Shown: piece after piece, positions 17,636-47,656 of the stretch
Layout: each line of letters opens with the position of its first letter
Position numbering within the stretch: the stretch's first letter is position 1
Assembly: GCA_963770895.1 (NCBI GenBank)
Contig: CAVYRF010000002.1
Span: 2,848,001 to 2,912,000, forward strand
DNA: 64,000 nt
Reading direction: 5' to 3'
Source of the DNA: an uncultured Acidobacteriota bacterium
GTDB taxonomy: Bacteria > Acidobacteriota > Thermoanaerobaculia > Multivoradales > UBA5704
Program-made: the position numbers and the translations under genes
The notes under the pieces: model-generated
What the model saw: the letters and a program-made list of their open reading frames with translations, nothing else
The model's database searches: none
Told to the model about the DNA's origin: nothing

Positions 17636-19582
17636 GTGAGCAAAATCATCGGAATCGACCTGGGCACGACCAACAGCGTCGTGGCCGTCATGGAAGGCAC
17701 CGAAGCCAAGGTGATCCCGAACGCCGAAGGCAACCGCACCACGCCGTCGGTCGTCGCCTTCACCAAGGGCGGCGAGCGCCTGGTCGGGCAGGTGGCCAAG
17801 CGGCAGTCGGTGACCAACCCCCGCAACACCGTCTTCTCGATCAAGCGCTTCATGGGGCGCAAGTACAGCGAGGTCAACGAAGAGATGAAGATGGTGCCCT
17901 ACGTCGTCGAGCGCGCCGACAACGGCGACGTGCGAGTGGCGGTGGAGGGCAAGAAGTACTCGCCGCCCGAGATCTCGGCGATGATCCTGGGCAAGCTGAA
18001 GCAGGCCGCCGAAGACTACCTGGGCGAGAAGGTGGACCAGGCGGTGATCACCGTGCCGGCCTACTTCAACGACTCGCAGCGCCAGGCGACCAAGGACGCC
18101 GGCCGCATCGCCGGCCTCACCGTCGAGCGGCTGGTCAACGAGCCCACGGCGGCGGCGCTGGCCTATGGCCTGGACAAGCAGAAGGACCAGACGATCGCCG
18201 TCTACGACTTCGGCGGCGGCACCTTCGACATCTCGATCCTGGAGGTGGGCGAGGGCGTGGTCGAAGTCAAGGCCACCAACGGCGACACCCACCTGGGCGG
18301 CGACAACGTCGACCAGCGCATCATCGACTGGCTGCTCGAGGAGTTCAAGAAGGACCAGGGCATCGACCTGGGCAACGACCCGATGGCGATCCAGCGCCTC
18401 AAGGAAGCGGCCGAAAAGGCCAAGATCGAGCTGTCGTCGGCTCTCGAGACGGACGTCAACCTGCCGTTCATCACCGCCGACGCCGCCGGCCCCAAGCATC
18501 TCAACCTGCGGCTGACGCGCAGCAAGCTCGAGCAGCTGGTGGCGGACCTGATCCAGCGCTCCATGGGTCCCTGTCAGCGGGCGCTCGACGACGCGCACCT
18601 GACCCCCAAGGACATCGACGAAGTGGTCCTGGTGGGCGGCCAGACGCGCATGCCGGCGATCCAGAAGCTGGTCAAGGACTTCTTCGGCAAGGAGCCGCAC
18701 AAGGGCGTCAACCCCGACGAGGTGGTGGCGGTCGGCGCCGCGATTCAGGGCGGCGTGCTGCGCGGCGACGTCAAGGACATGCTGCTGCTCGACGTGACCC
18801 CGCTGTCGCTCGGCATCGAAACCCTGGGCGGCGTGTTCACCAAGCTGATCGACCGCAACACCACGATCCCGGCGCGCAAGGGCGAGACCTTTTCGACTGC
18901 CGCCGACAACCAGACCTCGGTCGAGGTGCACGTGCTGCAGGGCGAGCGCGAGATGGCGCGCTACAACCGCACGCTCGGCAAGTTCCACCTCGACGGCATC
19001 CCGGCGGCGCCGCGCGGCCGGCCGCAGATCGAAGTGTCGTTCGACATCGACGCCAACGGCATCGTCCACGTTTCGGCCAAGGACCTTGGCACCGGCAAGG
19101 AGCAGAAGATCACCATCACCTCCTCCTCGGGCCTGAGCGACAGCGAGATCGACCGCATGGTCAAGGAGGCCGAATCGCATAGCGACGAGGACAAGGAGCG
19201 GCTGCGCCAGGTGGAGATCCGCAACCGCCTGGACGCCCTGGCCTACAACACCGAGAAGACCTACAACGAGCATAAGGAAAAGCTCGCCGCGGACGACAAG
19301 GGGCAGCTGGAGCAGGCGATCGCCGACGCCAAGAAGGCGCTCGAATCCGAAGACACCGGCAACATGGAGAAGGCGACCGCCAACCTCGAGCAGGCGTCGC
19401 ACAAGATGGCCGAGCGCCTGTACAAGGAGCAGGCGGCGGGTGCGGCGGGTGGTCCCGGATCAGGCCCTGCCGGTGGCGGCGCCGCCGGCTCTCAGGGCGC
19501 GGCCGGCCAGCGGTCCGGCGGCGGCGCGGGCGCCGACGAGGTGATCGACGCCGAGTACGTGGACGTCGACGAGAAGCGCTGA
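17636..19582 (+). CDS. dnaK: Chaperone DnaK
   Basis: [32 protein letters not shown]; AGGAGG RBS. Confidence 0.99.
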
Positions 19583-19593
19583 ACGGAGTTGGA

Positions 19594-20049
19594 ATGGCAC
19601 CGCTGCGCAAGACGTACCTCGATGAGTTGACGCGCATTCAGGAGCGCGTCAACGGTCTGTTCGAGCAGACGCTGGTTGCTGCCAACTTCGAGGACCGCGA
19701 CGCCGGCGCCCCTGGCAGCTGGGCGCCGGCGGTCGATCTCATCGAGGCGGAGGACGCCTACCTGCTCTTCGTGGAGCTGCCGGGAGTTCGCCGCGAAGAG
19801 GTGCAGCTGCAGGTGCGGGAGCGGCGGCTGGAGCTTTCCGGCCGCCGCCAGCCGCCCAGCGAGCATCGGACCTTTCTGCGCATGGAGCGTAGCTACGGTC
19901 CTTTTCGCCGCAGCTTCGAGCTGGCGGCGCCGATCGACGCGGACGCCATCACGGCCGAGCTGTCGCAGGGTATCCTGCGGGTACGCGTACCGAAGCGCCG
20001 TGACGGCGCCGGTCGCAGGGTGAACGTTCCGGTCGAGGAGAACCGCTGA
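19594..20049 (+). CDS. Hsp20/alpha-crystallin small heat-shock protein
   Basis: PAVDLIE, ELPGV, ERSYGPFRRSF, GILRVRVPK. Confidence 0.92.
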   Translation: MAPLRKTYLDELTRIQERVNGLFEQTLVAANFEDRDAGAPGSWAPAVDLIEAEDAYLLFVELPGVRREEVQLQVRERRLELSGRRQPPSEHRTFLRMERSYGPFRRSFELAAPIDADAITAELSQGILRVRVPKRRDGAGRRVNVPVEENR

Positions 20050-20435
20050 TGCAGTCCCGGCGCCGCGGCAGCCAGCCCAAGTACGTGATGATCAGCGTGG
20101 TGTCGGAGCGCTACGGCATCCACCCGCAGACCCTGCGCCTCTACGAGCGCGAAGGGCTGATCAAGCCGGCGCGCAGCTCCGGCAACACCCGCCTTTACGA
20201 CGAAGAGGCGATGCGCCGCCTGGAGATCATCCTCACCCTGACCCGCGACCTGGGCGTCAACCTCGCGGGCGTCGAAGTCATCCTCAACATGAAGGAGCGC
20301 ATGGAGCAGATGCAGGGCGAAGTCGACCGCCTGCTGGAGTTCGTGCGCAGCGAAGCCCAGGAACGCCGCCAGGCCATGGAGCGCCAGGGAGCCCTGGTGC
20401 GCGTGCGCGGCGGCCCCCTCACCAAACGCACGTAA
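20049..20435 (+). CDS. hspR: MerR-family heat-shock repressor HspR
   Basis: ISVVSERYGIHPQTLRLYEREGLIKPARS, LGVNLAGV. Confidence 0.9.
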   Translation: MQSRRRGSQPKYVMISVVSERYGIHPQTLRLYEREGLIKPARSSGNTRLYDEEAMRRLEIILTLTRDLGVNLAGVEVILNMKERMEQMQGEVDRLLEFVRSEAQERRQAMERQGALVRVRGGPLTKRT

Positions 20436-20477
20436 ATCAAGGTTGGGAAGCGCCCGCGCCGTGCTACGATTTTGCGC

Positions 20478-21308
20478 ATGGCGGTGCATGATGTCGAGCG
20501 AGCGGTGTGCCCGGGCTGCGGCGGGCGCGGGTGGGTGGTGCAGCTCGACGGCGGCGGGTCCGGTACGGCGCGCCCCTGTTTCTGCCGGCAGTACGAAGTG
20601 CTGCCGCGCCTGCTCGCCACCGCCGGCATCCCGGACCGCTACCGGGAGTGCCGCCTGGACAACTTCAAGGTCACCGGCGGCGCCACGCCGGTGCGCAACC
20701 AGCTGCTGGCGGCGCGCGCCGCGGCGCAGCGGTATACCAACGAGTTTCTGACCGAATCCGGCTTCGCCTCGTCGGGGCTGCTGTTCATCGGCCCGCCCGG
20801 CGCGGGCAAGACCCACCTGGCGGCCGGCGTGCTGGTGGAGCTGATCGAGCGCTACCAGGTGCGCGGCCGCTTCGTCGAGCTGAACACCTTTTTCAACCAG
20901 CTGCAGGCGACGTTCGGCGCGGTTGCCGGCGAGCCGAAGCAAGAGGTGCTGGCGCCGCTGCTCGACAGCCCGCTGCTGGTCATCGACGAGCTGGGGGCGC
21001 AGCAGCCGACGCCGTGGATCCGCGACGTGCTGTACCTGGTCATCAACACCCGCTACAGCCGCCGCCTGCCCACCCTCTTCACCACCAACTACCGTCTGCC
21101 CGCGACCGGTGGCGAAGTGCCGGTGGCGATGCAGAGCCTGGATCGCGGCCGCGATCCCGATCCCACCTGGGACGACGCGGCGGCGCTCGGCAGCCGGTTG
21201 CCGGCGATGCTGGTCAGCCGCCTCTATGAAATGGCCCAGCCGGTGGTGATGACCGGAGTTCCCGACTACCGGCGCGAGCAGAGCGTGCACAAGGCCCGCC
21301 GTCGATGA
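20478..21308 (+). CDS. DnaC/IstB-like AAA+ ATPase (helicase loader-like)
   Basis: CPGCGGRG...CFC zinc motif, GPPGAGKT, LLVIDELG, TTN, SRLYEM. Confidence 0.85.
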   Translation: MAVHDVERAVCPGCGGRGWVVQLDGGGSGTARPCFCRQYEVLPRLLATAGIPDRYRECRLDNFKVTGGATPVRNQLLAARAAAQRYTNEFLTESGFASSGLLFIGPPGAGKTHLAAGVLVELIERYQVRGRFVELNTFFNQLQATFGAVAGEPKQEVLAPLLDSPLLVIDELGAQQPTPWIRDVLYLVINTRYSRRLPTLFTTNYRLPATGGEVPVAMQSLDRGRDPDPTWDDAAALGSRLPAMLVSRLYEMAQPVVMTGVPDYRREQSVHKARRR

Positions 21309-25716: not shown

Positions 25717-26142
25717 ATGTTGCGTCGTCGTGGCGTACTTCACTTCCTGGCCGTGGTGGCGGTCGCTCTACTGTTTCCTGGCGGCATTCACGCCCGCGCT
25801 ACCGGCGCTCCTGGTGTCACCGGCGCTTCCGGCGCCACCAGCGTCACCGGTTCCCCTGGCTCCCGTGGCGCTTCCGTCTCCACCGGCTCCACCCGCTCCA
25901 CCGGCTCCACCGTCTCCACCGGCTCCACCGGCTCCAATAGATTGACCGGCGCCCCGGCACATGCCGGAGCGCGGGTGGCAAGGACGCCGGCGCCGGCGGG
26001 CACCACCTCGACCGCGGCGGCGTTATGGCACTGGCTGGCGGACCTTGCCGGCCTGGCGCCCAAGGCCCAACCCGGCCACGGCGCTCCGGTGCGGACTCTG
26101 GGAGGCGGTTGCCCAAACCCGGACGGAGGCCCTTGCACCTGA
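25717..26142 (+). CDS. Small secreted precursor-like protein A (141 aa)
   Basis: GAGGG RBS; signal peptide MLRRRGVLHFLAVVAVALLFPGGIHA; STG repeats; LWHWLADL; C-terminus GGGCPNPDGGPCT. Confidence 0.75.
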   Translation: MLRRRGVLHFLAVVAVALLFPGGIHARATGAPGVTGASGATSVTGSPGSRGASVSTGSTRSTGSTVSTGSTGSNRLTGAPAHAGARVARTPAPAGTTSTAAALWHWLADLAGLAPKAQPGHGAPVRTLGGGCPNPDGGPCT

Positions 26143-26273
26143 CCGCCGGGCGCGGTGGCGGCAGGGTCGTCCTTCAGGCCGGCTGCCACCCGTCGCGATG
26201 GTCTGACTACGCGATGTGAGATAATTCTGTAATAATGTCTCGCGATGCGAACCCGAGGTCCCGAGGAGGTTCC

Positions 26274-28022
26274 GTGAACGACCACCCCACCGCCGCCGAG
26301 ATCGCCGGCATGGCCCGCGGCACCATTTCACGCAATGGCCTCCAGCGGATGGTGGCGCACCTGCTCGAAGGCTGCCAGCGCTGCGCCCGGCAGCTCGCTT
26401 CGGCAATCGAGCTGACGACGCCGGCGCAGGCTGCCGCCAGTACCGGCGCCGCCTGCAGCGGTGCCGGCCCTGCGCGCCGGTCCTCATCGCAAAGGCGTTC
26501 GCTGGCTCAGTCGGCGGCTCCTCAAGCCTATGACCAGGCCGCCTACGATCCGCCGATCGCCCGCGCCTGCGCCACGGCGCTACGCCACTTGCGCCAGCTT
26601 GAGCACGACCGCCGTCAGGTGCGCGCGGGGGAGCCTGACGCGGCGCCTCCGGCATCGTCACTGGCGGCAACGGCGCGGACGCCGGCCGCGAAGGCGACCA
26701 CCGCGCCGCTGGCCCTGGCGGCGACGCCGGCCCCAACTGCGCCGATGGCGACGCCGGCCCTGACTGGCCTGACTGCGATTCCGGCCCTGACTGACCTGGC
26801 CGCAACGCTGGCCACGACTCCTGCGACGAGGGCGGCGACCGCCAAGGCGACGGCGACGCCGGCCGGACAGGCTGACGCGGCGCCGCTTGCCGCGCTCGCT
26901 TCCCCCGGTGAGATCGCGCCGCAGGCGCGGCCGCCGGTCGCCGCCGCCGCGGCGCGAAGCCGGCGCAAGGATGGCTCCAAGGAGGGCGAGCGCCGGCACC
27001 CGGTCGCCCTGCTCAAGGTGGAAATGCTGCTCACCACGGCCTGGGATCTGCGCCACACCGACCCGCAAAAGATGCTCCAGATCGCCGAGCTGGCGCTCTC
27101 CGCGGCGGAGCGCCTGGATGGCTCCCGCCACGGCGAGGCGGCGGTGGCCGATCTGCGCGCCCGCGCCGCTGCCGAGCTGGGCAACGCCTACCGCGTCTGC
27201 GACGACTTCCTGCAGGCCGAGCGGATGATGGCCGAAGCGGTGCGCTGGCAGCGGCGGGGCAGCGGCGACCTGACGCTGGTGGTCCGCATCGGCGACCTGC
27301 TGGCATCGCTGCTGGTCGATCAGCGGCGATTCCCCGAAGCCGATGAGCTGCTCGACCAGGTGCAGAGCTACTACCAGAAGGAAAACGACCCCCACCTGGC
27401 CGGCCGGACGCTGATCAAGCGCGGTATCTTCGCCGGCTACGACGGCGCGCCGCGCCGCGCGCTCCGCTACCTGACGGAAGGGTTGGAGCTGATCGACGTG
27501 CAGCAGGACCGGCGCCTGGCGGTGCAGGCCGTGCACTCCATCCTGTGGAACCTGGTGGAATGCGAGCGCTACCGGCAGGCGCGCATCCACCTGTGGCGGA
27601 CGCGCGCGCTCCTGCTGGAGCACGGCGGGGAAATCTACCCGCTGCTGCTGCGCTGGCTGGAAGGGCGGATCGACGCCGGCCTGGGCGAGCTGGACCGCGC
27701 CGAGCGCGAGCTGGCGGCGACGCGCCAGGGGTTTGCGGACGCCGGCTACATCTTCAACGCCGCCCTGTCATCGCTCGACCTGGCCGCGGTGTGGCTGCGC
27801 CAGGGCAAGACCATGGCCGTGCGCCAGCTGGTCGAAGAGATGATAGCGACCTTTCGCGCCCTGCGCCTGGCGCGCGAAGCGGTGGCGGCGCTGCTCATCC
27901 TGCGCGAAGCGTGCGATCGCGACGAAGCGACCCTGGACCGCGTGCAGGCGGTGGCCGCGCTGCTCACCGAGCTGGAGCATCAGCAGCCGCGCCGTCACTC
28001 CGAAACGCCGGTCGCCGATTGA
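26274..28022 (+). CDS. Zinc-finger (zf-HC2-like) + TPR-like protein
   Basis: GGAGG + GTG; HPT...HLLEGCQRC; ELGNAYRV, LRWLEGRI, AALSSLDLA, REAVAAL. Confidence 0.8.
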   Translation: MNDHPTAAEIAGMARGTISRNGLQRMVAHLLEGCQRCARQLASAIELTTPAQAAASTGAACSGAGPARRSSSQRRSLAQSAAPQAYDQAAYDPPIARACATALRHLRQLEHDRRQVRAGEPDAAPPASSLAATARTPAAKATTAPLALAATPAPTAPMATPALTGLTAIPALTDLAATLATTPATRAATAKATATPAGQADAAPLAALASPGEIAPQARPPVAAAAARSRRKDGSKEGERRHPVALLKVEMLLTTAWDLRHTDPQKMLQIAELALSAAERLDGSRHGEAAVADLRARAAAELGNAYRVCDDFLQAERMMAEAVRWQRRGSGDLTLVVRIGDLLASLLVDQRRFPEADELLDQVQSYYQKENDPHLAGRTLIKRGIFAGYDGAPRRALRYLTEGLELIDVQQDRRLAVQAVHSILWNLVECERYRQARIHLWRTRALLLEHGGEIYPLLLRWLEGRIDAGLGELDRAERELAATRQGFADAGYIFNAALSSLDLAAVWLRQGKTMAVRQLVEEMIATFRALRLAREAVAALLILREACDRDEATLDRVQAVAALLTELEHQQPRRHSETPVAD

Positions 28023-28075
28023 GTCGCCCGCCGTCTGGAGGGCGGCGGCCGAACGGGTAGTGCAGACCGGTCGGG

Positions 28076-28624
28076 TCAGTCGTCGGGCCAGGAGTCTTGC
28101 GGCGGGATCTTGCCGCCGCCCAGCGGCAGCGGCGGCCCGACGCCGGCAGCGCCGGATGTGCCGGCGGGTGTCGTGGCTCCGATCAAGGTTTCTCGCGTTG
28201 CCGCCTTGAATCCGTCGCTCAATGCCGGCGGCCCGCCGCGATCCAGGACGCGGTCCAGAACGGCTTCGATGCGGCGGTCCAGCTCTTCGTTGGTCCACCG
28301 GCGCGACGGCGCCGGCGGCGGCGCGACGCGGCCGTAGCCCAGGCGCTGAAAGCTTTCCAGGACGCTGGTGGCGGCCGAGTCGCCGCCGTCTTCGACGCGC
28401 GGCTTGGCACACGCCAGCTGAAAGAAGCGCTCGGGTCTCATCCCGATCACTTCCAGGACGCGCAGGATGTGGCGGAGCTTGAGGTCGATGCGGCCGTTGA
28501 AGATGCGGTTGAGGGTTCCCGCTCCCAGATCGAGCCGGCGCTCGACCTCGCGCACCGAGAAGTCGGACAGCCGCACCAGGGCCTCGAGGACTCTCGCCAT
28601 GCGGCGGATGTCGTCGTCGACCAC
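28076..28624 (-). CDS. XRE-family HTH protein
   Basis: SVREVERRLDLGAGTLNRIFNGRIDLKLRHILRVLEVIG. Confidence 0.8.
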   Translation of the reverse strand: MVDDDIRRMARVLEALVRLSDFSVREVERRLDLGAGTLNRIFNGRIDLKLRHILRVLEVIGMRPERFFQLACAKPRVEDGGDSAATSVLESFQRLGYGRVAPPPAPSRRWTNEELDRRIEAVLDRVLDRGGPPALSDGFKAATRETLIGATTPAGTSGAAGVGPPLPLGGGKIPPQDSWPDD

Positions 28625-28745
28625 GGCGCGAGTCTACACCAGCCATCCCGGCCCACCGTTGCCGCGTCGCCTCGCCGCGGGATAGCATCCGTTGGCTTCG
28701 CAGCCTGCGCAGCGCGCCCGCGCTTTCAGATAGAGGAGGCTTCCG

Positions 28746-29894
28746 TTGGACTTTGCCCTGACCGACGAACAGCGCGCCATTCAAGCGACCGCCCGCGACT
28801 TCGCGCGCCAAGAGATCCATCCGATCGTCGACGAGATCGACGAAAGCCAGCGCTTCCCGCGCGAAGTGATGATGAAGGCGGGGGAGCTGGGCTTTCTCGG
28901 CATCATCTTTCCCGAAGAGTACGGCGGCGCCGGCCTCGGCTATGTCGAATACGTGCTGGTCGTCACCGAGCTGTCGCGCGTCGACCCCTCGGTCGGGATC
29001 AGCGTTGCCGCCCACAACTCCTTGTGCAGCAATCACATCTACAAGTTCGGCAGCGACGATCAACGGCGCCGGTGGCTGCGCCCCCTGGCGGCCGGGGAAA
29101 AGATCGGCGCCTGGAGTCTGACCGAGCCCGGTGCCGGCTCCGATGCCGCGGGGACGCGGACGCGGGCGGACCGGGTGGCGGGCGGCTGGGTGCTCAACGG
29201 CGCCAAGACGTTTACCACCCACGGCCGCGAGGGCGACATCTGCGTCGTCTTTGCCGTCACCGACCCGGCGGGTCCGCGCCACCACAACATCTCCGCCTTC
29301 GTGCTGGACAAGGGGATGGACGGCTTCCGCGCCGGCAAGAAGGAAAACAAGCTGGGCATCCGCGCCTCGGACACCTCCGAGGTGATCATGCAGGACTGCT
29401 TCGTGTCCGAGGACCGCCTGCTGGGCGACGCCGGCGAAGGCTTCATCCAGGCGCTCAAGATCCTGGACGGCGGGCGCATCTCGATCGCCGCCCTGGGGCT
29501 CGGCACCGCCAAGGGGGCGTACGACACCGCGCGCGCCTATGCCAAGGAGCGCCACCAGTTCGGCAAGCCGATCGCCGCCTTTCAGGCCATCCAGTTCATG
29601 CTGGCCGAAATGGCGACCACGGTTGCCGCCGCGGAATGCCTCACCCTGGCCGCCGCCGAAGCCATGGACCGCGGCGCCGACGTGTCGCGGCTGGCGTCCG
29701 AAGCCAAGCTGTACGCCGGTGAAGCCGCCGTCTTCTGCAGCGAGCGCGGCGTGCAGATCCACGGTGGCTACGGGTTCATCAAGGACTACCGGGCCGAGAA
29801 GTTCTACCGCGACGCCAAGATCTGCACCATCGGTGAAGGCACCAGCGAGATCCAGCGCCTGGTGATCGCGCGCCAGCTCCTCAAGGAGCGCTAG
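28746..29894 (+). CDS. Acyl-CoA dehydrogenase
   Basis: LTEPGAGSDA, KLGIRAS, QFGKPI, QIHGGYG, IGEGTSEIQR. Confidence 0.95.
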   Translation: MDFALTDEQRAIQATARDFARQEIHPIVDEIDESQRFPREVMMKAGELGFLGIIFPEEYGGAGLGYVEYVLVVTELSRVDPSVGISVAAHNSLCSNHIYKFGSDDQRRRWLRPLAAGEKIGAWSLTEPGAGSDAAGTRTRADRVAGGWVLNGAKTFTTHGREGDICVVFAVTDPAGPRHHNISAFVLDKGMDGFRAGKKENKLGIRASDTSEVIMQDCFVSEDRLLGDAGEGFIQALKILDGGRISIAALGLGTAKGAYDTARAYAKERHQFGKPIAAFQAIQFMLAEMATTVAAAECLTLAAAEAMDRGADVSRLASEAKLYAGEAAVFCSERGVQIHGGYGFIKDYRAEKFYRDAKICTIGEGTSEIQRLVIARQLLKER

Positions 29895-30901
29895 TGGCGG
29901 CGCTCGGGCGCAGCCGGCAGGATTGGCCGCTCGACGAGCTGGTGGCGCGTCTGATGGAGCGCCAGCCGCGCGCGCTGGGACGCGCTGTGTCGCTGGTGGA
30001 AGACGGCGGTGACGCGGCGCGGCAGCTCGTCGCGCGCGTCTATGGGCACACCGGCCGGGCGCGGGTGGTGGGGGTGACCGGTCCGCCCGGCGCCGGCAAG
30101 AGCACGCTGGTGGATCGCCTGGCTCGCCACTGTCGCGGGCGCGGCGAAACGGTGGGCATCCTGGCGGTCGACCCCACCAGCCCCTTCACCGGCGGCGCCC
30201 TGCTGGGCGACCGCATCCGCATGCAGAGCCACTACACCGACGGCGGCGTGTTCATCCGTTCGATGGCCACGCGCGGTGCGATGGGCGGTCTGGCGCGCGC
30301 CACCCGCGACGGGGTGGATCTGCTCGACGCCGCCGGATTCGACTGGGTGTTGGTCGAGACGGTGGGGGTGGGCCAGGACGAAGTGGACGTGGTGCGTTCG
30401 GTGGATTCCGTCGTGGTGGTCACCCTGCCCGGCCTGGGCGACGAGATCCAGGCGATCAAGGCGGGCATTCTGGAGATCGCCGACGTGTTCGTGATCAACA
30501 AGGCGGACCGCGAAGGAGTGGATCGTGCCTGGAAGGACCTTCACATGATGCTGTCGATCGGCGACCACGGTGCCTGGCTGCCGCCGGTGCTCAAGGTGAT
30601 CGCCACGCGCGACGAAGGCGTCGATCGGCTGCTGGCCGAGATCGACCGCCATCGCCGCCACCTGGAAGAGAGCGGCGAGCTCGCGGCCCGCCGCCGGTCG
30701 CACCTGCGGCTGCGCGTCGAAACCCTGCTCAAGGAGCGCGTCGTGGCGGCGGCCGACCGCCTGCTCGGCCTCGAACGCGAAGTCGAGCGCGGTTTCGCCG
30801 CCATGCTCGATCCCTACCAGGTGGCGGATCGGCTGTTTGCGGGCGTCGTCGACGGCGGCGCCGCTGCCGCCGCCACCGTCGCCGCGGAGCGAACGCTGTG
30901 A
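29894..30901 (+). CDS. meaB: Methylmalonyl-CoA mutase-associated GTPase MeaB
   Basis: GPPGAGKST, AVDPTSPFTGGALLGDRIRM, ETVGVGQ, NKAD. Confidence 0.95.
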   Translation: MAALGRSRQDWPLDELVARLMERQPRALGRAVSLVEDGGDAARQLVARVYGHTGRARVVGVTGPPGAGKSTLVDRLARHCRGRGETVGILAVDPTSPFTGGALLGDRIRMQSHYTDGGVFIRSMATRGAMGGLARATRDGVDLLDAAGFDWVLVETVGVGQDEVDVVRSVDSVVVVTLPGLGDEIQAIKAGILEIADVFVINKADREGVDRAWKDLHMMLSIGDHGAWLPPVLKVIATRDEGVDRLLAEIDRHRRHLEESGELAARRRSHLRLRVETLLKERVVAAADRLLGLEREVERGFAAMLDPYQVADRLFAGVVDGGAAAAATVAAERTL

Positions 30902-31359
30902 TCCGCGGCGTCGATCACATCGGCATCGCGGTGCGTTCGATCGCCGAAGGCCGGCTGTTCTACGAAGCGCTGGGGCTGCACGTCGAAGCCATCGAAGAGG
31001 TTCCCGGCGACCAGGTGCGGGTGGCGATGATCCCGTGCGGCGGCACCCACATCGAGCTGCTGGAGCCCACCTCGCCCGACTCGCCGGTGGCCCGCTTCCT
31101 CGATCGCCGGGGGCCCGGCCTGCACCACATCTGCCTGGCCAGCGACGGCCTGATCGCCGACGACGCGCAGCTGCGCCAGAGCGGCTATCGGGTGCTGCGC
31201 CCGGAGCCGACGCGCGGCGCCGGCGGCTGCTGGATCCAGTTCGTGCACCCGCAGAGCACCGGCGGCGTCCTGGTCGAGCTGTCGCAGCCGGGCGACGACA
31301 GCGACGGCGAGCCCGCGCTCGAGCCATCGCAGCCCCAGCCCCCGCCGCCCCGGCCATGA
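30898..31359 (+). CDS. mce: Methylmalonyl-CoA epimerase
   Basis: DHIGIAV, IELLEP, GLHHI, FVHP..GGVLVEL. Confidence 0.9.
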   Translation: MIRGVDHIGIAVRSIAEGRLFYEALGLHVEAIEEVPGDQVRVAMIPCGGTHIELLEPTSPDSPVARFLDRRGPGLHHICLASDGLIADDAQLRQSGYRVLRPEPTRGAGGCWIQFVHPQSTGGVLVELSQPGDDSDGEPALEPSQPQPPPPRP

Positions 31360-31724
31360 GAATCCGCGCCGGTTCGATCATTGTCGTGCACCTCAACAAC
31401 CCGACCGAGAAGTTCTGGGGGGTGCTGCAGGAGGTGGCGATGGCCGGCGTCTACCTGCGCGGCATCAGCGTCGACAGCTTCGACGACTGGATGGCGCAGG
31501 CGGTGCGCGGCAAGGACCAGACGCTCGGCCTCTGCTCCATGTTCGTGCCGCTGTTTCGCGTCGAGCGGATCTTCCTGGACGAGCCGGTGGGAGAGGTCGA
31601 GAGCTACCGCCAGCGCTTCTCCCGCCGCGTCGGGGTGGCGGTCGAGCGCTACCTGGACCTGGCCGATCCGGCCGGCGACGACGAAGGCGAAAAGGCCGGC
31701 TCGCCGCCGGAGATCCCCTCGTAA
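31356..31724 (+). CDS. Conserved-looking hypothetical protein
   Basis: ATGA overlap with mce; MRIRAGSIIVVHLNNPTEKFWGVL...FVPLFRVERIFLDE. Confidence 0.75.
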   Translation: MRIRAGSIIVVHLNNPTEKFWGVLQEVAMAGVYLRGISVDSFDDWMAQAVRGKDQTLGLCSMFVPLFRVERIFLDEPVGEVESYRQRFSRRVGVAVERYLDLADPAGDDEGEKAGSPPEIPS

Positions 31725-31753
31725 CCCCCGCGGCCCCGACCAGACCTCCGGCG

Positions 31754-32857
31754 TCAGTGTGCCGGCGCCCTTCCCAGGGGGTCTTCGTGCTCGCCGATCC
31801 GCCGTAGCAGGCGGTCCGTCAGGCGGCGTAGCGGCAGCGGTCGCGGTGGCAGCTCGGGCGTCGCCGGCTGGGCGGCATCCGCCAGGGAGCCGTCCTGCGC
31901 CAGGCCCAGGCCCCGCACCCCCGTCAGACACCCCAGCGCTTCCAGCGCCTGGCCGCTGGCCAGCGCCAGTCCGGCCTCCAGCCAGGCGCGCTCCAGGTCT
32001 TCGCCGGGAGCGGCTGGCAGGTCGTAGAGCAGCCGCGCTTCGTACAGCCGCTCGCGCGCCGCATCCCGGCTGCCCAGCGCCGCTTCGCAGATCGCCAGAC
32101 TGAGCAGCAGCCGCGCGGCCAGCGACGGCCATGCCGCCAGGTCGATCGCCTCCAGGGCAGCCCGCAGCTGCGGGCGCGCCTGCGCATAGTCGGCGTTCTC
32201 CTGCAGCAGGATGCCGGCCTGTGCGCGGCAGGCGGCCGCCGGCTCGGCATCCTCCAGCTGGCAGAACTGCTGCACGGCCTGGGTGAACAGTGCCACGGCC
32301 TCGTCGCGCGCCCCCTGGTCCACCCGCACCTGCGCCAGCCCCGCCGCCGCCAGGCCGCGTTCGCCGCTGGCCCCCGGCGGCACGAACGCCGCCATGGCCG
32401 CGAAGGACTCCTCCGCCGCCAGCCAGCGCTCGTCGTGCAGGTGGCACTTGCCGAGCAGCCAGCAGGCCAACGCCGCGGTGCGCCCGGCCGCCGTCCCCGG
32501 TTCCGCATCCAGCGCCAGCGCCACCGCCGCCGCCATCTCGGCCGCCTCCAAGTCCGGCACGCCTTCCAACAGCGCGCTCTCCGCCCGGTAGGCAAACAGC
32601 CGGGCCAGTGTTTCGCGCTGGAAGACCGGGTCCCGCCGCACCGCCTGCTGGCGCAGCCCGCGCGGCAGCCGCATCAGTTCTTCTCCCAACTCCCGGTCAA
32701 GCCCGCACGCCCTCACCATCGCCACCAACGACCGCAGCTCATAACCCTCGGGTCCGGCGGGGTGCCGCCGTGCCCGAAGTCCACCCGCATCCGGCAGTCG
32801 AGCCGGTGACAACCGGATGTCGCCATCGCCTCCCTCGCCAAGCTCGGAGTAGTCCAT
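31754..32857 (-). CDS. Divergent, possibly truncated TPR-like protein of the same family
   Basis: MDYSELG...; ACWLLGKCHL, RAWLEAGLALASG match family motifs; TACGCT 7 nt before the ATG. Confidence 0.65.
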   Translation of the reverse strand: MDYSELGEGGDGDIRLSPARLPDAGGLRARRHPAGPEGYELRSLVAMVRACGLDRELGEELMRLPRGLRQQAVRRDPVFQRETLARLFAYRAESALLEGVPDLEAAEMAAAVALALDAEPGTAAGRTAALACWLLGKCHLHDERWLAAEESFAAMAAFVPPGASGERGLAAAGLAQVRVDQGARDEAVALFTQAVQQFCQLEDAEPAAACRAQAGILLQENADYAQARPQLRAALEAIDLAAWPSLAARLLLSLAICEAALGSRDAARERLYEARLLYDLPAAPGEDLERAWLEAGLALASGQALEALGCLTGVRGLGLAQDGSLADAAQPATPELPPRPLPLRRLTDRLLRRIGEHEDPLGRAPAH

Positions 32858-33029
32858 CAAACTCAGCGTACGGGGTAACCTTCTGTCTGCCAAGCGTTTG
32901 CCGCAAATCCAGAACCTTGGTGAGGCTTCTTCGCCAGTTTCCCGGAGATTGCCGCCTCCGGTAACGCCGCGCCGCCTCGCGGCAGTTGTCACGATCTCGC
33001 CATTTTGGTGGCATGGAACAGCCTCAGGT

Positions 33030-33054
33030 GTGTCAATATCCGCTGTATTGGCAC
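33030..33054. promoter_or_regulatory. Candidate operator (inverted repeat)
   Basis: GTGTCAATA-N7-TATTGGCAC, 8/9 symmetric, in an A/T-rich divergent intergenic region. Confidence 0.5.
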
Positions 33055-33211
33055 TATTGAGGTCAAAAAGCACGACCAAAGAGTCGGGATTCACGAACTC
33101 GCGACTCCGCAATTGCGTCAATCGTGCGCGACCGTGCCTGCAGTGTCCCTGGGGAGGGTCTCCCGAGCCTGCCGCTGATGGCAGGATCTCGTGGTCCGAG
33201 GAAGGAGTGTT

Positions 33212-33553
33212 ATGCCCCGCATCCTCTGCTTTCTGGTTCTGTGCGTTCTGATTCTGGCTGTCCCGATGACCGCGTCCGCCGCTCAGGCGGGCCGGACAAC
33301 CGTCACATCGCATGGCAGCGGTGTGACCGCCTTCTGGTGGGCGATGCTTGAGCAGGTTTGGCACAATGCCACAACATTTAGCCCGTTCTGGCAACCGGCG
33401 CGAGGTGCCGGCGCTCAGCAGACCGGCAGCCGAGTGCGTCACTCCACGGTGACCACGCGGTCCACACCTCCGCTTACCGGCGGAGCCCATCTGGTGGATA
33501 ACAACTGCGACGGCGGATCGATGTTGGATCCCAACGGCCACTGCGGGGGCTGA
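33212..33553 (+). CDS. Small secreted precursor-like protein B (113 aa)
   Basis: AGGAAGGAG RBS; signal peptide MPRILCFLVLCVLILAVPMTASA; FWWAMLEQVW; C-terminus NNCDGGSMLDPNGHCGG. Confidence 0.8.
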   Translation: MPRILCFLVLCVLILAVPMTASAAQAGRTTVTSHGSGVTAFWWAMLEQVWHNATTFSPFWQPARGAGAQQTGSRVRHSTVTTRSTPPLTGGAHLVDNNCDGGSMLDPNGHCGG

Positions 33554-33620: not shown

Positions 33621-35003
33621 TTATCCGGCGGCTTGCCGCAGCAGCTCGAAGGCGGCGAGAGCTTCGCGGTGTGTGCGCTGAGCACAAAACACCGCGGCGC
33701 TCTCGCGCGCCAAGGCTTGAGCCTCTGCCACCCGGCCGGCGGGAGCAAGAAGCGTCGCAAGCTCCAAGGACGCCAGAGCCGCGTCGTAGTTCACGTCGCA
33801 AGCGACAAACCGATTGCGCACTTCGGACAAGCTCGCGATGGCTTCGTCGACACGTCCCAGGCTGGCTGCCACTCGTCCTTTCAGCCACTGGACTCGGACC
33901 AGGTCCAAATCGCAGCCCAAGGGTTCGACCAGGCGGCGGGCCTCGTTCGCTACCGTGTCCGCCTCAGCGTAGCGTCGTAGCTCGCAAAGGCAATGCGCGA
34001 CCAGCAACCGGTGGATGAACAGGAGACGAGGTTGCGCAGTGCCGTCGATCAGCGTCGCCGCCTCTTCGACGGCGGCCATTGCACGCTCGCAGTGGCCGTC
34101 GTCGCAGTGGCCGAAGTCCAATAGGGCGCGCGCCTTGTTGAGCAGGATCCGCACCGGATCGGCGCCGCTCTCCAATGCCCGGTCAAGCAGGGCCAGCGCC
34201 TGGTTGGGGCGGCCCTGGTCGATGCGGAGAGAGGCTTCCAGCTCCAGCAGCAGGCTGCCGTGAAGCGAGCCGATGCCAGTGCTCCCCTGCCATAGCTCTG
34301 CCGCGCGGTTGAACGACTGATCAGCGCCCGGCAAGTCCGACGACACCCGCAAGGCGTTGCCGAGGTGAGCCCAGGTGTAGCCCTGGAGGCATTCACGACG
34401 GCGCCGATCCCCAGGTACAGCTTCGGCAATGTCCACGGCCAACTGCGCCAGCTCGATCGCTTCGCCAGGCGCCCGCGGCGTCAATTCAAGGCTCTTGGCA
34501 CAGAGCAGCACCGCCAGCGCTTCGCTCTGGAAGTCCGTGGCTTCTTCGACCAGGGCGCGGCGTTCCTGAGCGGATCTCTGGAGCAGCTTGGCGAGCAGCA
34601 GGGCAGCCCGATCGCCTGCGGAATTTGGCTTCGACGGCTCCGGCGGCTGGAGCGCCGGACGCAGGTGGGCGCGCAACAACTGCTGCAGATCATGCATCCA
34701 GTCCGAGGTGTCGGTGCGGCCGTGGCTGGAATCGGGTTTCTTGGCTGGCGAGCCCAACGTCTCCTTGCGCAGCTCGCGAATGCCCGCCAGGGCAACGCGC
34801 AGCGCGGCAGGGGTAAAGCCAAGCACCGAGCTGATGCGCTCCAGGGTTTCGGAGCTGGGCGTCTTACGTCCGGCTTCGATCGATGCCAGGTAACTGGTCC
34901 CTGTCCAGCCTAATGCGCGTGCGAGATCCTGCTGTTGCCATCCGCGACTCTGACGCAAAAGCCGTACTGCCAGGCCGAGCTCTGGAGGAGGCGGAGTGGT
35001 CAT
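33621..35003 (-). CDS. XRE-HTH + TPR-like regulator (paralog 2)
   Basis: LRQSRGWQQQDLARALG..YLASIEAGRKTPS; GYTWAHLGNALRV; WLKGRV; AALASLELA; start 35003 or 35030. Confidence 0.85.
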   Translation of the reverse strand: MTTPPPPELGLAVRLLRQSRGWQQQDLARALGWTGTSYLASIEAGRKTPSSETLERISSVLGFTPAALRVALAGIRELRKETLGSPAKKPDSSHGRTDTSDWMHDLQQLLRAHLRPALQPPEPSKPNSAGDRAALLLAKLLQRSAQERRALVEEATDFQSEALAVLLCAKSLELTPRAPGEAIELAQLAVDIAEAVPGDRRRRECLQGYTWAHLGNALRVSSDLPGADQSFNRAAELWQGSTGIGSLHGSLLLELEASLRIDQGRPNQALALLDRALESGADPVRILLNKARALLDFGHCDDGHCERAMAAVEEAATLIDGTAQPRLLFIHRLLVAHCLCELRRYAEADTVANEARRLVEPLGCDLDLVRVQWLKGRVAASLGRVDEAIASLSEVRNRFVACDVNYDAALASLELATLLAPAGRVAEAQALARESAAVFCAQRTHREALAAFELLRQAAG

Positions 35004-35051
35004 GGGATGTGGTGGCCGCAGGGATCTCACGCCGTCAGGATTGCCCAGCGA

Positions 35052-36521
35052 TCACGACGTGCTCCTGAAGCACAGCCCCGGATTGTGATGGGCGCTGCAA
35101 AGATAGGTCACCAGCTGGCGGCAGAGCTCGGCCGTCGCGGTCTCCTTCTCGGCCGCTTGCCGGAACAGCTCCAACGCCGCCTGCGCTTCGCGGTGGACCT
35201 GCTGGGCGCGAAAGATCGCGGCGCTCTGCCGAGCCAAGGTTTTGACTGCGCCGGTGCGGTTTTCGGAGGCTAGGATGGTGGCCAGCTCAAGAGACACCAG
35301 GGCGGCGTCCCATGCGTTGTCGCGAACGATGAAGTCGCTGCGCACCTGGTGGAAGGTCGCAATGGCTTCTTCGCTACGGCCGAGGCCCGCGGCCAGCTTG
35401 CCCTCCAACCAGAGAATGCGGACGAGGTCGATCTCATTGCCGAGTCGTTCCGCCAGCATCCGCACCTGGCCGATGATCCCCTGGGCCGCAGGATAGTTTT
35501 CGGCGTAGCACCAAGCGTGAGCGAGGTACTGCAGCTGGATGAGAAACAGCCTTGGCTCACGCTCCGCATTGATCAAGGGCGCAGTATCTTGTAGCAGGTC
35601 GATCGCGCGCTCGTACTCGGCGACGTCGATCAGGGCCTTGGCCTTGTTGAGCAGCAGTCTGGGCGGCGCATTGCTGCTCACCAGGGCTTGGTCCAGCACG
35701 GCCAGCGCTTGCCAGGGTTGCCCTTGGTGCAGTCGCAAGGACGCCTCCAGGTCGAGCAGACGGCTGCCATCGAGCAGGCCGGATTCGTCGCCGGAGTGCC
35801 AGAGCTTTTTGGCCTGGCGGAAGGCATCTTCGGCTGCGGGAAGGTCGGAGGAGACGCGCAGGGCGTTGCCGAGATGGGCCCAGGCGTAGCCCTGGACACG
35901 GCGAGGCCAGGGATCGGCGCCGGGGACCTGAGCGGCGATCTCAAGGGCCATGTGAGCCAGCTCGACGGCTTCCTTGGGCTTGCGGGGCGCGGCTTCCAGG
36001 CTGCGCTCGCAGAGCAGCTCGCAGAGGCCCCAGGTCTGGAATTCGGGGGCGTCTTCGATCAGGACGCGGCGCTCCTGGGGCGAGCGGCGCTGCAGGCGTG
36101 CCCAGAGGCCGTGGGCGGCGCGGCGCTCTTCGAGGACGCGGGCGTCGGACAGGACGCGGTCCAGGGTTTCGCGGGCGAAGTCGCGGACGCGGGCGGCGAT
36201 CTGGTCGGCGATGGCGTCGATGGGGAGCTTTTCGGTGTCGGTGGCGACGGCTTCGGTTCCCTGGGAGGCCTTGACCACCGACTGCACCCGGTCGAAGAAG
36301 GTGGCGGAGTAGCCGAGGGCGGCGAGCAGCTGGCGCTGGGTCTTGGCGGAGGGGGCGCGGACGGCTCGCTCGTAGTCGGAGACGCTGCCAGGTTTGAGCC
36401 CGGCTGCTTCGTCAAGGCGCTGTTGCGAGACGCCGCGCAGCACGCGCAGAACCATCAGGGTACCGGCGAGGGTGGTTCGCGGAGGTCCCCATTGAGACCG
36501 GACGCGCACGGTGGAAGCCAT
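35052..36521 (-). CDS. XRE-HTH + TPR-like regulator (paralog 1)
   Basis: LRVLRGVSQQRLDEAAGLKPGSVSDYERAVRAPS; GYAWAHLGNALRV; WLEGKL; AALVSLELA; GGAGG RBS. Confidence 0.85.
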   Translation of the reverse strand: MASTVRVRSQWGPPRTTLAGTLMVLRVLRGVSQQRLDEAAGLKPGSVSDYERAVRAPSAKTQRQLLAALGYSATFFDRVQSVVKASQGTEAVATDTEKLPIDAIADQIAARVRDFARETLDRVLSDARVLEERRAAHGLWARLQRRSPQERRVLIEDAPEFQTWGLCELLCERSLEAAPRKPKEAVELAHMALEIAAQVPGADPWPRRVQGYAWAHLGNALRVSSDLPAAEDAFRQAKKLWHSGDESGLLDGSRLLDLEASLRLHQGQPWQALAVLDQALVSSNAPPRLLLNKAKALIDVAEYERAIDLLQDTAPLINAEREPRLFLIQLQYLAHAWCYAENYPAAQGIIGQVRMLAERLGNEIDLVRILWLEGKLAAGLGRSEEAIATFHQVRSDFIVRDNAWDAALVSLELATILASENRTGAVKTLARQSAAIFRAQQVHREAQAALELFRQAAEKETATAELCRQLVTYLCSAHHNPGLCFRSTS

Positions 36522-43620: not shown

Positions 43621-44238
43621 TCATGAAACCCGCGGGGCGGCGGATTCCTGCGCCGCCTCGACGCGGCGCATGGCGCGGAACAGGCGGCTCTCCACCGCCC
43701 CCTCGGAGATCCCCAGGACTTCGGCGATCTGCCGGTAGGACATCCCTTCGAAGCGTGCCAGGACCAGCACCGCGCGCTGGTTGGGTGGCAGCTTGGCGAT
43801 GGCGCGCCGGGTGTCCTGCCAGCGCTGGCGCGCGGCGAGCACGGCGGCGGCGTCGGGGCTGCCGTCGGGCGGATCGAACGGCGCCGCGTCGCGCTCGTCC
43901 GCCGTCTCCCAGGGGACGAAACGCACCAGGCGCCGGCGGCGCAGCTTGTTGAGGCAGTGGTTGGTGGCGATGCGGTAGAGCCAGGTGTAGACCTGCCCCT
44001 GCGGGCGGAAGTCGGCGGCCTTGCGATAGGCCTTCAGGAACACCTCCTGCGCGGCGTCGCGGGCCTCCTCGGCATCGCCCAGCAGGCGCTCGCACAGCCG
44101 CAGCAGCCGTTCCTGGTGGGTTTCGACCAGCGAGGTGAATGCCTCGGTGTCGCCGGCCGCGACGCGGGCCAGGGCCTCCCAGCCCGGATCGGCCACCGGT
44201 TCCGGTCGCAGGTCGCTCACCATGTCAGCGCGGCCCAT
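43621..44238 (-). CDS. ECF RNA polymerase sigma factor
   Basis: DAAQEVFLKAY, TWLYRIATN, MSYRQIAEVLGISEGAVESRLFRA. Confidence 0.95.
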   Translation of the reverse strand: MGRADMVSDLRPEPVADPGWEALARVAAGDTEAFTSLVETHQERLLRLCERLLGDAEEARDAAQEVFLKAYRKAADFRPQGQVYTWLYRIATNHCLNKLRRRRLVRFVPWETADERDAAPFDPPDGSPDAAAVLAARQRWQDTRRAIAKLPPNQRAVLVLARFEGMSYRQIAEVLGISEGAVESRLFRAMRRVEAAQESAAPRVS

Positions 44239-44273
44239 CCCATCGGCGGGCGGTTGATGGCAGAATCCCGCCT

Positions 44274-45461
44274 GTGATCGAACGCATCCAACGCTACCTC
44301 ACCGATCCGGCCAGCGCCTCGTTCGAGGAGCTGGCGCTCGCAGTCTTCGCCTACCAGTACGCCAACGTCGAACCCTACCGGCGCATGTGCGACAGCCGCG
44401 GCGCCACCCCCGGCACGATCGCCGACTGGCGCCAGGTGCCGCTGGTGCCGGCGGAAGCGTTCAAGCGGGTGCGGCTGGCTGCCGCGCCGCCGCAGGAGAT
44501 CTTCCGCAGCAGCGGCACGGCCGGCAGCCTTGCGGCTGGCGCCGCGCCGGTCGCTACCGGCGCCCCCGGCGACGGCGCGGCAGAGGCTGGTGACGGCTCG
44601 GGTGCCGCCAGCGCGCCGTCCGCCGATGCGCCGCCGGACGGCGGCCGCAGCGTCCACTACCATCCGTTCCCCGACCTCTACCGGCGCACCATCGACGCCA
44701 GTTTTCCGATGTACTGCCTCCCCCGCACGGGCGGCGACCTGCGCTTCCCGATGCTGTCGCTGGTGCCGTCGCGCGCGCAGCTGCCGGACTCCAGCCTGTC
44801 GTTCATGATCGATCATGTGCTGACCCGATTCGGTGCCTCCGGCAGCGTCGTGGCCTGCGGCAAGCGCGGCGTCGAAGCCGTGCCGGCCCGTTCGTGGGCC
44901 GCGGTGCAGCAGCGGGCCGGCGCCCCGGCGGTGGTGCTGACCACCTCCCTGGCGCTGTCGCAGTGGCTCGACGCACTCGAACGGCAGGATTTGCGCTTCC
45001 GCCTGCCAGCCGGCAGCGCGGTGTTCGAGACCGGCGGTTTCAAAGGTCGTGCCGGGGAGGTCTCGGTGGCGCGCGAGCGGGTGCGCCTGGCGCAGCGGCT
45101 GGGGGTGCCGTCGCACGCCGTGGTGCGCGAATACGGCATGACCGAGCTGACCAGCCAGTGCTACACGCGCGTCCTGCAGGGGAGCGATCCCGACCACTTC
45201 GTGGCGCCGCACTGGGTGCGCGTGCGGGTCCTCGACCCCGCCACGCTGACCGAAGCAAAGCACGGCGCGCCGGGCCTCCTCGCGATCTTCGACCTGGCCA
45301 ACCTGGGTTCGGCGGCGCACCTGCTGACCGCCGACATGGGCGAGGCGGAGGGGGAGGGCTTCCGGCTGCTCGGCCGCGCCGCCGGCGCCGAGCTGCGCGG
45401 CTGCTCGCTCACCGCCGAAGAGCTGTTTGCCGCCGGCGACCCCGGCGCCGCCGCCGGCTGA
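44274..45461 (+). CDS. LuxE-like acyl-protein synthetase
   Basis: FRSSGT, ETGGFKGR, EYGMTELTSQ, LLGRAAGAELRGCS. Confidence 0.85.
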   Translation: MIERIQRYLTDPASASFEELALAVFAYQYANVEPYRRMCDSRGATPGTIADWRQVPLVPAEAFKRVRLAAAPPQEIFRSSGTAGSLAAGAAPVATGAPGDGAAEAGDGSGAASAPSADAPPDGGRSVHYHPFPDLYRRTIDASFPMYCLPRTGGDLRFPMLSLVPSRAQLPDSSLSFMIDHVLTRFGASGSVVACGKRGVEAVPARSWAAVQQRAGAPAVVLTTSLALSQWLDALERQDLRFRLPAGSAVFETGGFKGRAGEVSVARERVRLAQRLGVPSHAVVREYGMTELTSQCYTRVLQGSDPDHFVAPHWVRVRVLDPATLTEAKHGAPGLLAIFDLANLGSAAHLLTADMGEAEGEGFRLLGRAAGAELRGCSLTAEELFAAGDPGAAAG

Positions 45462-45478
45462 AGCCCGCCGGCGGCCGC

Positions 45479-47455: not shown

Positions 47456-47656
47456 GCTCCCCCCGCGCCGTGCCGCGCCGTCCACCGGCCGGATGCCGGA
47501 TGCCCCGCCTCCACCCACCCGCGCTGTCGCTCGTCCGCTGCGATCAGTCTACTCCCGCGCGCCGTCGGCGATCGTCGCCGCCATCCGCGATCGGCCGCGA
47601 CCGTCTGCCCCTCTGGATGGCGGGCAGTTTTATTCTGAGGGCATAATCGCGGTCGC

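Follow-up and report, generated by a model that had tools for sequence, protein, structure and literature searches.

Peptide signals that are read by cytoplasmic receptors with tetratricopeptide repeats (TPR) are known from the RRNPP family. One paper treats such systems as a trait of Bacillota, their phages and plasmids (PMC10075063), and a second describes RRNPP as a Bacillota trait (PMC12700828). According to a third, RRNPP receptors hold the peptide via a conserved Asn on the concave face of the TPR superhelix (PMC4794775). PlcR-PapR, NprR-NprX, AimR-AimP, PrgX and Rgg-SHP served as RRNPP/RRNPPA comparators. The window analysed here is a stretch of 64,000 nucleotides from an uncultured acidobacterium of the Thermoanaerobaculia (contig CAVYRF010000002.1, positions 2,848,001 to 2,912,000). 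It carries two small genes, A and B, which are real members of a large exported-peptide family of soil Acidobacteria. Genes for TPR proteins, referred to as sensors, adjoin both. To judge from a complex model, the adjoining intracellular sensor probably binds the peptide tail.

The arrangement resembles RRNPP systems in several respects. A small gene for a pro-peptide with predicted export adjoins a gene for a cytoplasmic receptor, and the neighbours of B combine an XRE-type helix-turn-helix (HTH) domain with a TPR superhelix, as in the PlcR/NprR/PrgX/Rgg/AimR branch. The active part of the peptide would again be the C-terminus, as conservation and modelling suggest. By model and alignment, a conserved Asn would likewise line the concave side of the superhelix, and NprR (Z score 22.6) and AimR (19.4) were among the structural matches. 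Other traits differ. The host is a diderm member of the Acidobacteriota and not of the Bacillota. The precursors are longer, contain a conserved Trp helix, often comprise two to four units and often form Cys-bracketed loops. They share a D-P-x-G anchor, about 25 cassettes are present per genome and often two or three sensors accompany one peptide. Because the host phylum lies outside the RRNPP definition and no sequence kinship was found, the system is filed as working like RRNPP and not as a member.

For the sensor downstream of A, which lacks an HTH domain and is termed class II, Rap-Phr was a further comparator. Rap proteins were the best prokaryotic fold matches to the sensor. As in Rap, a small N-terminal helical domain precedes the TPR part, and the peptide gene lies directly beside the sensor gene on the same strand. 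The gene order is reversed, since phr follows rap in Rap-Phr and the peptide gene comes first here. In contrast to Rap, the N-terminal domain holds the motif H...H-x4-C-x2-C, which to our knowledge is not known from Rap proteins, and the linker behind it is disordered.

An earlier note on this DNA, based on the letters alone, had proposed that A and B share a layout of signal peptide, Trp-rich helix, linkers and a C-terminal [DN]-P-[DN]-G motif between two Cys, and that this motif should be enriched at the C-termini of small open reading frames (ORFs). Both ORFs translate as described there, including ALWHWLADL, AFWWAMLEQVW and both tails. The whole genome (8.16 Mb, 71% GC, three contigs) was searched for the motif. 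In its strict form, the tail pattern requires Cys, [DN]P[DN]G and Cys within the last 25 residues; among 91,021 stop-to-stop ORFs with 40 codons or more, it was present in five. Each of these showed the signal/helix/tail layout, and A and B were two of them. When every tail was shuffled in 20 rounds, the mean was 0.5 and the maximum 3, in agreement with the proposed enrichment. When the pattern was relaxed to C-x(1-6)-[DN]P[DNS]G-x(1-4)-C, 21 ORFs were obtained. By eye, 12 of these had the full layout, and several bore two to four tandem loops. Further members, which are Cys-free and end in DPNG, DPNGG, DPNGGG, DPYGG, NPDG or DPDGAL, were recovered when a signal-like N-terminus was required together with [DN]PxG among the last 16 residues. 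Weak matches of hidden Markov models (HMMs) converged on the same peptide genes as the motif searches.

Altogether, the genome encodes at least 25 paralogs with a signal peptide, a Trp/Leu helix, a linker and one to four D-P-x-G units at or near the C-terminus. Precursor lengths ranged from 67 to 180 aa. Of 23 family members, 22, including A and B, passed a crude test for signal peptides that asked for K/R within the first 12 residues, a hydrophobic core and a small-x-small site. The 25th copy has EPNG between two Cys and was located directly upstream of a sensor that had previously seemed to be without a peptide. Among 21 aligned paralogs, the P of the motif was invariant and D and G were conserved in at least 90%. 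The conserved unit is roughly [DE]-x-G-(C)-x-[ILMA]-D-P-x-G-(x-C). Seven of the aligned paralogs had no Cys and three more had a single one. The conserved element is D-P-x-G, and the Cys bracket is a subfamily trait. The proposed layout with its tail motif was confirmed in this respect, but the Cys bracket does not define the family, as about half of the members are without it. A disulfide is not essential because many members have no Cys. Where Cys residues flank D-P-x-G, a stapled beta-turn would be the simpler reading. The tail had also been regarded as the functional end of the peptide. This view is supported, as the tail is the only near-invariant part of the family and contacts the neighbouring sensor in the complex model.

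Units were compared in 21 precursors with two or more of them. Units within a precursor shared 0.556 of their non-defining positions versus 0.306 between precursors, a value reached by none of 2000 shuffles. This similarity fits several copies of one released peptide and fits recent internal duplication equally well. A leader-like helix followed by short Cys-bearing repeats also resembles the multi-core precursors of ribosomally synthesised and post-translationally modified peptides (RiPPs), and the earlier note had suggested a RiPP-like core. The Cys-bracketed tail would then be modified by a dedicated maturase. However, no maturase-type family turned up among 42 neighbouring proteins: radical SAM, YcaO, lanthionine-synthetase and peptidase-transporter families were absent in scans of 10, 14 and 13 proteins. 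The Cys-free members do not suit such a core either, and RiPP precursors seldom carry a Sec signal peptide. A RiPP precursor is thus very improbable. Self-cleavage at Asp-Pro or Asn-Gly bonds, which that note had raised as a possibility, gained no support.

The main point, which the earlier note had not remarked, is the neighbourhood of the peptide genes. All 24 tested peptide genes were located at most 592 bp from a sensor-family ORF, although positions within 1 kb of these ORFs make up only 1.95% of the genome. The sensor HMM was built from the last 330 residues of 25 peptide-gene neighbours and is therefore derived from them, whereas the peptides themselves were found by motif, blind to their neighbours. 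With this HMM, 50 ORFs of at least 100 bits were detected in the genome, and 34 of them had a peptide gene within 3 kb. One to three sensor genes accompanied each peptide gene. The neighbours of the other paralogs were HTH_3 plus TPR proteins of 450-830 residues or, alternatively, HTH-less TPR proteins of about 470-670 residues directly downstream. Housekeeping genes made up the other neighbours. Adjacency was conserved beyond this genome, as all 14 peptide loci from 14 other genomes held a sensor-domain ORF inside their 1.5-kb flanks. Similarity among peptides co-varied with similarity among their nearest sensors (Mantel r 0.563; reached by none of 2000 permutations), and the cassettes therefore duplicate as modules. 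A pattern scan for sensor relatives matched 540 stretches, none of which was confirmed.

Two further sites in the genome also hold such genes. Contig C2 (493-506 kb) carries a dense cluster of at least five sensor genes and three peptide genes, in which several sensors have two HTH_3 domains. One peptide ORF of this cluster (L006:6415-6954) does not end behind its loops but continues antisense to the adjacent gene. On contig C1 (514438-514806; L001:4119-4487), a second copy of the adjoining peptide gene lies inside a sensor cluster. It has neither a start codon nor the D-P-x-G tail and probably represents a duplicate in decay.

Within the family of the window, the peptide profile matched each of 24 genomes, up to 24 times in a single one; in other families of the order, five of 16 genomes had matches. 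A phylum-wide search, with 16 candidates scored per genome, gave no match at E <=1e-6 in 300 other genomes; only one of these belonged to the family of the window, and the result serves mainly as a bound on false positives and less as a map of the range. Among 1.84 billion proteins, 542 cluster representatives were obtained at E <=0.001. Of the 149 small relatives among those listed, the last D-P-x-G was at most 8 residues from the C-terminus in 126, a Cys-bracketed unit was present in 93 and two or more units in 76. P0083, a PKD-repeat protein of 2442 residues, matched the profile only via the PKD turn S-T-D-P-E-G and was rejected as a false positive. In the ESM Atlas, the matches were Acidobacteriota clusters only; at 0.85-0.87, they were under the 0.9 level and serve as leads only. 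The closest relatives of the MeaB encoded in the window (up to 84% identity) all came from soil metagenome-assembled genomes labelled Thermoanaerobaculia, Acidobacteriota or Holophagales.

Single peptides diverge fast, as judged from sequence comparison. With A as query, one of 91 other family genomes had a match (E 3.7e-4), and B found matches in two (E 1.5e-4 and 7.6e-4). The one close relative of A was the metagenome protein P0013, with 31 of 49 residues identical over helix and tail. The last 13 residues were identical and the linker was not alignable. The expectation that conservation is confined to signal, Trp helix and tail thus holds for this pair. P0013 is without the 9-bp repeat, of which A has seven copies, and linker length therefore varies between strains. 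DNA contigs of four soil metagenome runs contained the organism of the window and revealed two non-synonymous variants of B. F41S (window 33333), at the start of the Trp helix, was found in two runs, and G65V (window 33405), in the linker, in one run. No synonymous variants of B were listed in these contigs.

Third-position GC was 0.75 in A and 0.73 in B, and 0.83-0.95 in neighbouring genes. Since both values are below those of the neighbours, composition alone does not prove that A and B are coding. Such values, together with the frequency of long spurious ORFs at 71% GC, would suit ORFs that arose by chance in GC-rich DNA and have a motif in common by coincidence. The 542 related cluster representatives, the strict positional link to one gene family in 15 genomes and the conservation of A's tail in P0013, an independent metagenome protein, argue otherwise. 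In addition, Shine-Dalgarno-like stretches precede the ATG of A (AGAGGGA) and B (GGAAGGAG), and a ribosome-binding site of the GAAAGGAG type precedes nearly all copies of the peptide gene. Chance ORFs are consequently extremely improbable.

The sensors fall into two classes. Class I, beside B, has an XRE-type HTH domain. Class II, downstream of A, has an N-terminal domain with the His/Cys motif and no HTH match in the sensor beside A. The H...H-x4-C-x2-C motif spans three short helices and was found in at least eight loci besides that of A. Such N-termini occur in loci L011, L012, L013, L014, L015, L016, L019 and L002; that of A's sensor lies at window 26235-26420. Both classes have the motifs G-N-A-x-R-V, A-S-L and W-L-x-G-R in common, according to the consensus lines of the alignment. 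Searches of the sensors against Pfam and NCBIfam returned generic HTH and TPR families only, with the dedicated RRNPP models of these libraries not checked. Neither an N-terminal signal sequence nor an uncharged hydrophobic span was seen in 25 sensors. A 19-residue hydrophobic window of at least 1.6 was present in eight of them, with charged residues in every one. Since there was no signal sequence and no convincing membrane span, the sensors are taken as cytoplasmic, and an HTH domain likewise implies a cytoplasmic location.

The TPR part of the class II sensor was modelled with AlphaFold2 (AF2) at a predicted local distance difference test (pLDDT) score above 90, and its N-terminal helices comprised residues 20-28, 33-44 and 48-60. 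The class I sensor at 33621..35030 (HTH_3 4.7e-13, TPR_12 2.4e-09) reached a pLDDT of 84.9, with the repeat region above 90. In Foldseek searches with both sensor models, LGN/Pins and Rap proteins were on top, with LGN first; PlcR was at rank 37 for class I. The template modelling (TM) score of RapI, normalised by target length, was 0.78. In VIA-align, APPBP2 ranked highest (Z 30.1, root-mean-square deviation 2.6 over 299 residues), followed by TSK (25.9). Rap proteins ranged from Z 23.3 to 24.3 (RapF 24.3, RapJ 23.9, phage phi3T Rap 23.8). Further matches were subunits of APC/C (about 23), NprR (22.1-22.6), MalT (22.0), LGN (21.8) and AimR (18.6-19.4). As modelled, the best prokaryotic fold matches are RRNPP receptors, and the fold itself is a generic peptide-binding TPR superhelix. 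APPBP2 (RxxGP C-degron) and LGN/Pins, which gave the highest fold scores, take up extended peptides in the concave groove, in the case of APPBP2 C-terminal ones. Neither sequence (11-18% identity) nor organism nor function connects them with the sensors, and these matches represent a generic fold and not kinship.

The N-terminal domain of class II was also compared with zinc-binding anti-sigma (ZAS) proteins. Common to both is a first His that is followed by a second His and two Cys, all on short helices. The spacing is H-x3-C-x2-C in the ZAS motif and H-x4-C-x2-C in class II. A gene for a sigma factor of the extracytoplasmic function (ECF) type lies beside two of about 10 class II loci, at L012:5389-5916 and in L014, there between peptide and sensor. 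These traits hint at an anti-sigma-like output. Near A, there was no sigma gene, the nearest being about 17 kb away. The direct reading of the domain as zf-HC2 or anti-sigma was rejected, as none of seven N-terminal segments matched zf-HC2, or any Pfam family, at E up to 5.

Binding of the tail was modelled with residues 92-141 of A and residues 250-595 of the downstream class II sensor, using alignments prepared for this analysis. The interaction prediction score from aligned errors (ipSAE) was 0.78 (runs 0.80, 0.77 and 0.78), versus 0.00 for the best of three controls. In the calibration, 58 of 80 solved complexes attained the ipSAE mark, as did two of 110 mismatched pairs. The docking runs agreed in at least 35% of contacts, with a partner pLDDT of at least 41. 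The confident peptide contacts were residues 130-139 of A; the Trp helix was not in the confident modelled interface. In the model, N134-P135-D136-G137 is placed against sensor residues 317, 320, 321, 354, 355, 358, 391, 395 and 398. The groove is lined by residues on successive repeats (273-277, 317-323, 354-362, 391-402, 428-438, 467-474 and 507-511). Among them, N317, R320, S358 and W474 were kept in 79-91% of 47 sensors, and their class I equivalents by motif, N224, R227, S266 and W381, were invariant in 12 class I sensors. N317, the residue kept in 79%, would face D136 and G137 of A.

These data also bear on the function of the peptides as such. A Trp-rich amphipathic helix after a signal peptide, many paralogs per genome and very fast divergence, with A found in one and B in two of 91 genomes and all matches at E >1e-4, would suit extracellular effectors. 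Such effectors could be membrane-active or bacteriocin-like through the Trp helix, or act as surface or metal-binding loops, and would merely be regulated by the HTH-TPR neighbours. The docking, for which the evidence is one model, would be an artefact. However, no immunity, exporter or lysis gene recurs among the scanned neighbours, and the conserved part is the C-terminal DPxG and not just the helix. Sensor classes with different N-terminal domains share groove residues, and the docking controls gave 0.00. An effector role of this kind is unlikely.

RRNPP-like export, re-entry and sensing is the best reading of the locus, and it has an even chance of being correct. A and B are two quickly diverging representatives of a pro-peptide family that is specific to this lineage, would be exported by Sec and travels with TPR sensor genes. 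The genes, the family, its strict adjacency to sensor genes, the persistence of this adjacency in other genomes and the sensor fold are shown by the present data, and binding is modelled. Export, cleavage, re-entry and output, as we infer them, would proceed as follows. The precursor would be exported by Sec, and in Cys-bearing members the C-x-DPxG-x-C loop would be closed by a disulfide in the periplasm. One or more C-terminal DPxG units would then be released, several in the case of multi-unit precursors. A released unit would re-enter a cell, bind the concave groove of its cognate TPR superhelix and alter the action of the N-terminal domain. This output domain would be the XRE-type DNA-binding domain in class I and the small helical His/Cys-motif domain in class II. 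D-P-x-G may serve as a family-wide anchor read by conserved groove residues, with flanking residues and variable groove positions setting the pairing. The genome encodes two Opp/Dpp-type binding proteins (SBP_bac_5), which are permissive only for re-import.

Several points weigh against this scheme. In a diderm, the peptide would have to cross the outer membrane on its way out and again on its way in, and for porins a loop of about 1 kDa is rather large. The disulfide would be reduced on return to the cytoplasm, the conserved Trp helix has no role in the scheme and precursors of 67-180 aa exceed typical RRNPP pro-peptides. The fold does not single out RRNPP, as APPBP2 and TSK exceed RapF. Co-variation of peptides and sensors shows module duplication and not binding. 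The evidence for binding is a single model with its own alignments, in which the fold of the peptide itself is uncertain (pLDDT 41-49). Solved TPR-peptide complexes exist (Rap-Phr, NprR-NprX, LGN and APPBP2), and the pass may partly reflect likeness to them. As a set, the 30 contact residues were not significantly more conserved than the other residues of the domain (0.486 versus 0.432; reached by 431 of 5000 random sets), and N317, R320, S358 and W474 were chosen after the data had been seen.

Outer-membrane passage, an importer and cleavage would all be unnecessary if the cytoplasmic sensor bound the tail of the unexported precursor. The rate of export would then set the proportion of free and bound sensor, and there would be no cell-to-cell signal. 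The same adjacency and docking evidence applies to such an export-coupled feedback, in which sensor and precursor are made in one compartment. Secreted anti-regulators and the TPR chaperone/co-activator circuits of type III secretion follow a parallel logic, but we know of no precedent with a Sec substrate, and Sec substrates normally leave quickly. Multi-unit precursors and the similarity of units within a precursor point to released units, and the optional periplasmic disulfide loops would be purposeless. Feedback by the unexported tail is quite unlikely.

The RRNPP-like reading can be extended to a peptide-pheromone system of Thermoanaerobaculia with cytoplasmic TPR receptors, which would be the first outside Gram-positives. 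It would comprise about 25 private channels per genome, an often stapled D-P-x-G beta-turn, multi-copy precursors and, in the His/Cys class, a non-DNA-binding output such as sigma-factor control. This wider proposal is possible and falls somewhat short of an even chance. A full-text literature search, with supplements and subscription journals outside its scope, found no description of this cassette. If the proposal is true, TPR-read peptide communication evolved or spread far more widely than thought, and a soil lineage that has an outer membrane, is abundant and has hardly been cultured follows its logic with unrelated sequence families. It would also pose the question of how peptides pass that membrane. 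Moreover, synthetic peptides would allow tests of about 25 candidate pairs of signal and receptor in each genome, with no culture of the organism needed. A shared D-P-x-G anchor with variable flanks would provide a simple model for the insulation of parallel channels.

The features of the two loci are compiled in Table 1.

Table 1. Positions of the peptide genes, sensor genes and associated elements in the window
Feature	Position	Strand	Description
Peptide gene A	25717..26142	+	141 aa; signal peptide, Gly/Ser/Thr linker, Trp helix, tail
Tandem repeat, 9 bp x 7	25874..25936	+	encodes the (G-S-T)n part of the A linker
Trp helix of A	26020..26046		residues 102-110 (ALWHWLADL)
Tail of A	26101..26139		GGGCPNPDGGPCT
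Class II sensor	26235..28022	+	595 aa; 92 bp downstream of A; Pfam TPR_12; sensor HMM 370.7 bits
Parts of the class II sensor			N-terminal helices with H17...H-x4-C47-x2-C50; disordered Ala/Thr/Pro linker; TPR superhelix 256-583
Small stand-alone HTH protein	28076..28624	-	182 aa; convergent with the class II sensor
Shortened sensor paralog	31754..32857	-	about 367 aa if the start is the ATG at 32857; divergent from B; 168.7 bits
Inverted repeat CCTGCC-GCTGAT-GGCAGG	33168..33185	+	leader of B, about 27-44 nt before the ATG
Peptide gene B	33212..33553	+	113 aa; signal peptide, Trp helix, linker, tail
Trp helix of B	33329..33361		residues 40-50 (AFWWAMLEQVW)
Tail of B	33506..33550		CDGGSMLDPNGHCGG
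Class I sensor	33621..35030	-	469 aa; XRE-type HTH + TPR; convergent with B, 67-bp gap; 340.1 bits
Second class I sensor	35052..36521	-	489 aa; tandem, upstream of the first; HTH_3 7.3e-09; 396.3 bits

Apart from a sub-threshold Collagen match on A (22.6 bits, cut-off 27.2), no Pfam or NCBIfam model matched the peptides. The Collagen match was rejected, as it is produced by the (G-S-T)n sequence and thus explained by the tandem repeat. The small HTH protein gave matches to HTH_31 (8.6e-05) and HTH_3 (3.4e-04), both below the cut-offs. By eye, no HTH_3 protein was noted beside other class II sensor genes in the genome-wide list, and the membership of the small protein in the module is uncertain. 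The shortened sensor paralog has a degenerate N-terminal motif and a truncated C-terminus. Its third-position GC rises only from about 32800, and its start codon is uncertain.

Inverted repeats like that in the leader of B are present about 30-45 nt before the ATG of many paralogs. They consist of GC stems with a loop of 5-6 nt, e.g. GGCC-AATTCC-GGCC, and examples from the same genome lie upstream of L003:6426, L018:8273 and L018:8870. In two near-identical copies of a peptide gene, the pairing of the leader stem was preserved via G-U changes. Such repeats might serve the HTH sensors as operators or form hairpins in the 5' RNA.

Other gene groups of the window lie outside the two loci. DnaK, Hsp20 and a MerR-family (HspR-like) regulator are encoded in a row at 17636-20435, followed by an ORF for an IstB-like ATPase (20472-21308) for which a transposase partner was not visible. 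Genes for a LuxE-like acyl-protein synthetase, an acyl-CoA oxidase and a LuxC-like acyl-CoA reductase are located together at 44139-49144, and an ECF sigma gene (43624-44238) adjoins them. A fatty-aldehyde or fatty-alcohol pathway is possible for this group.

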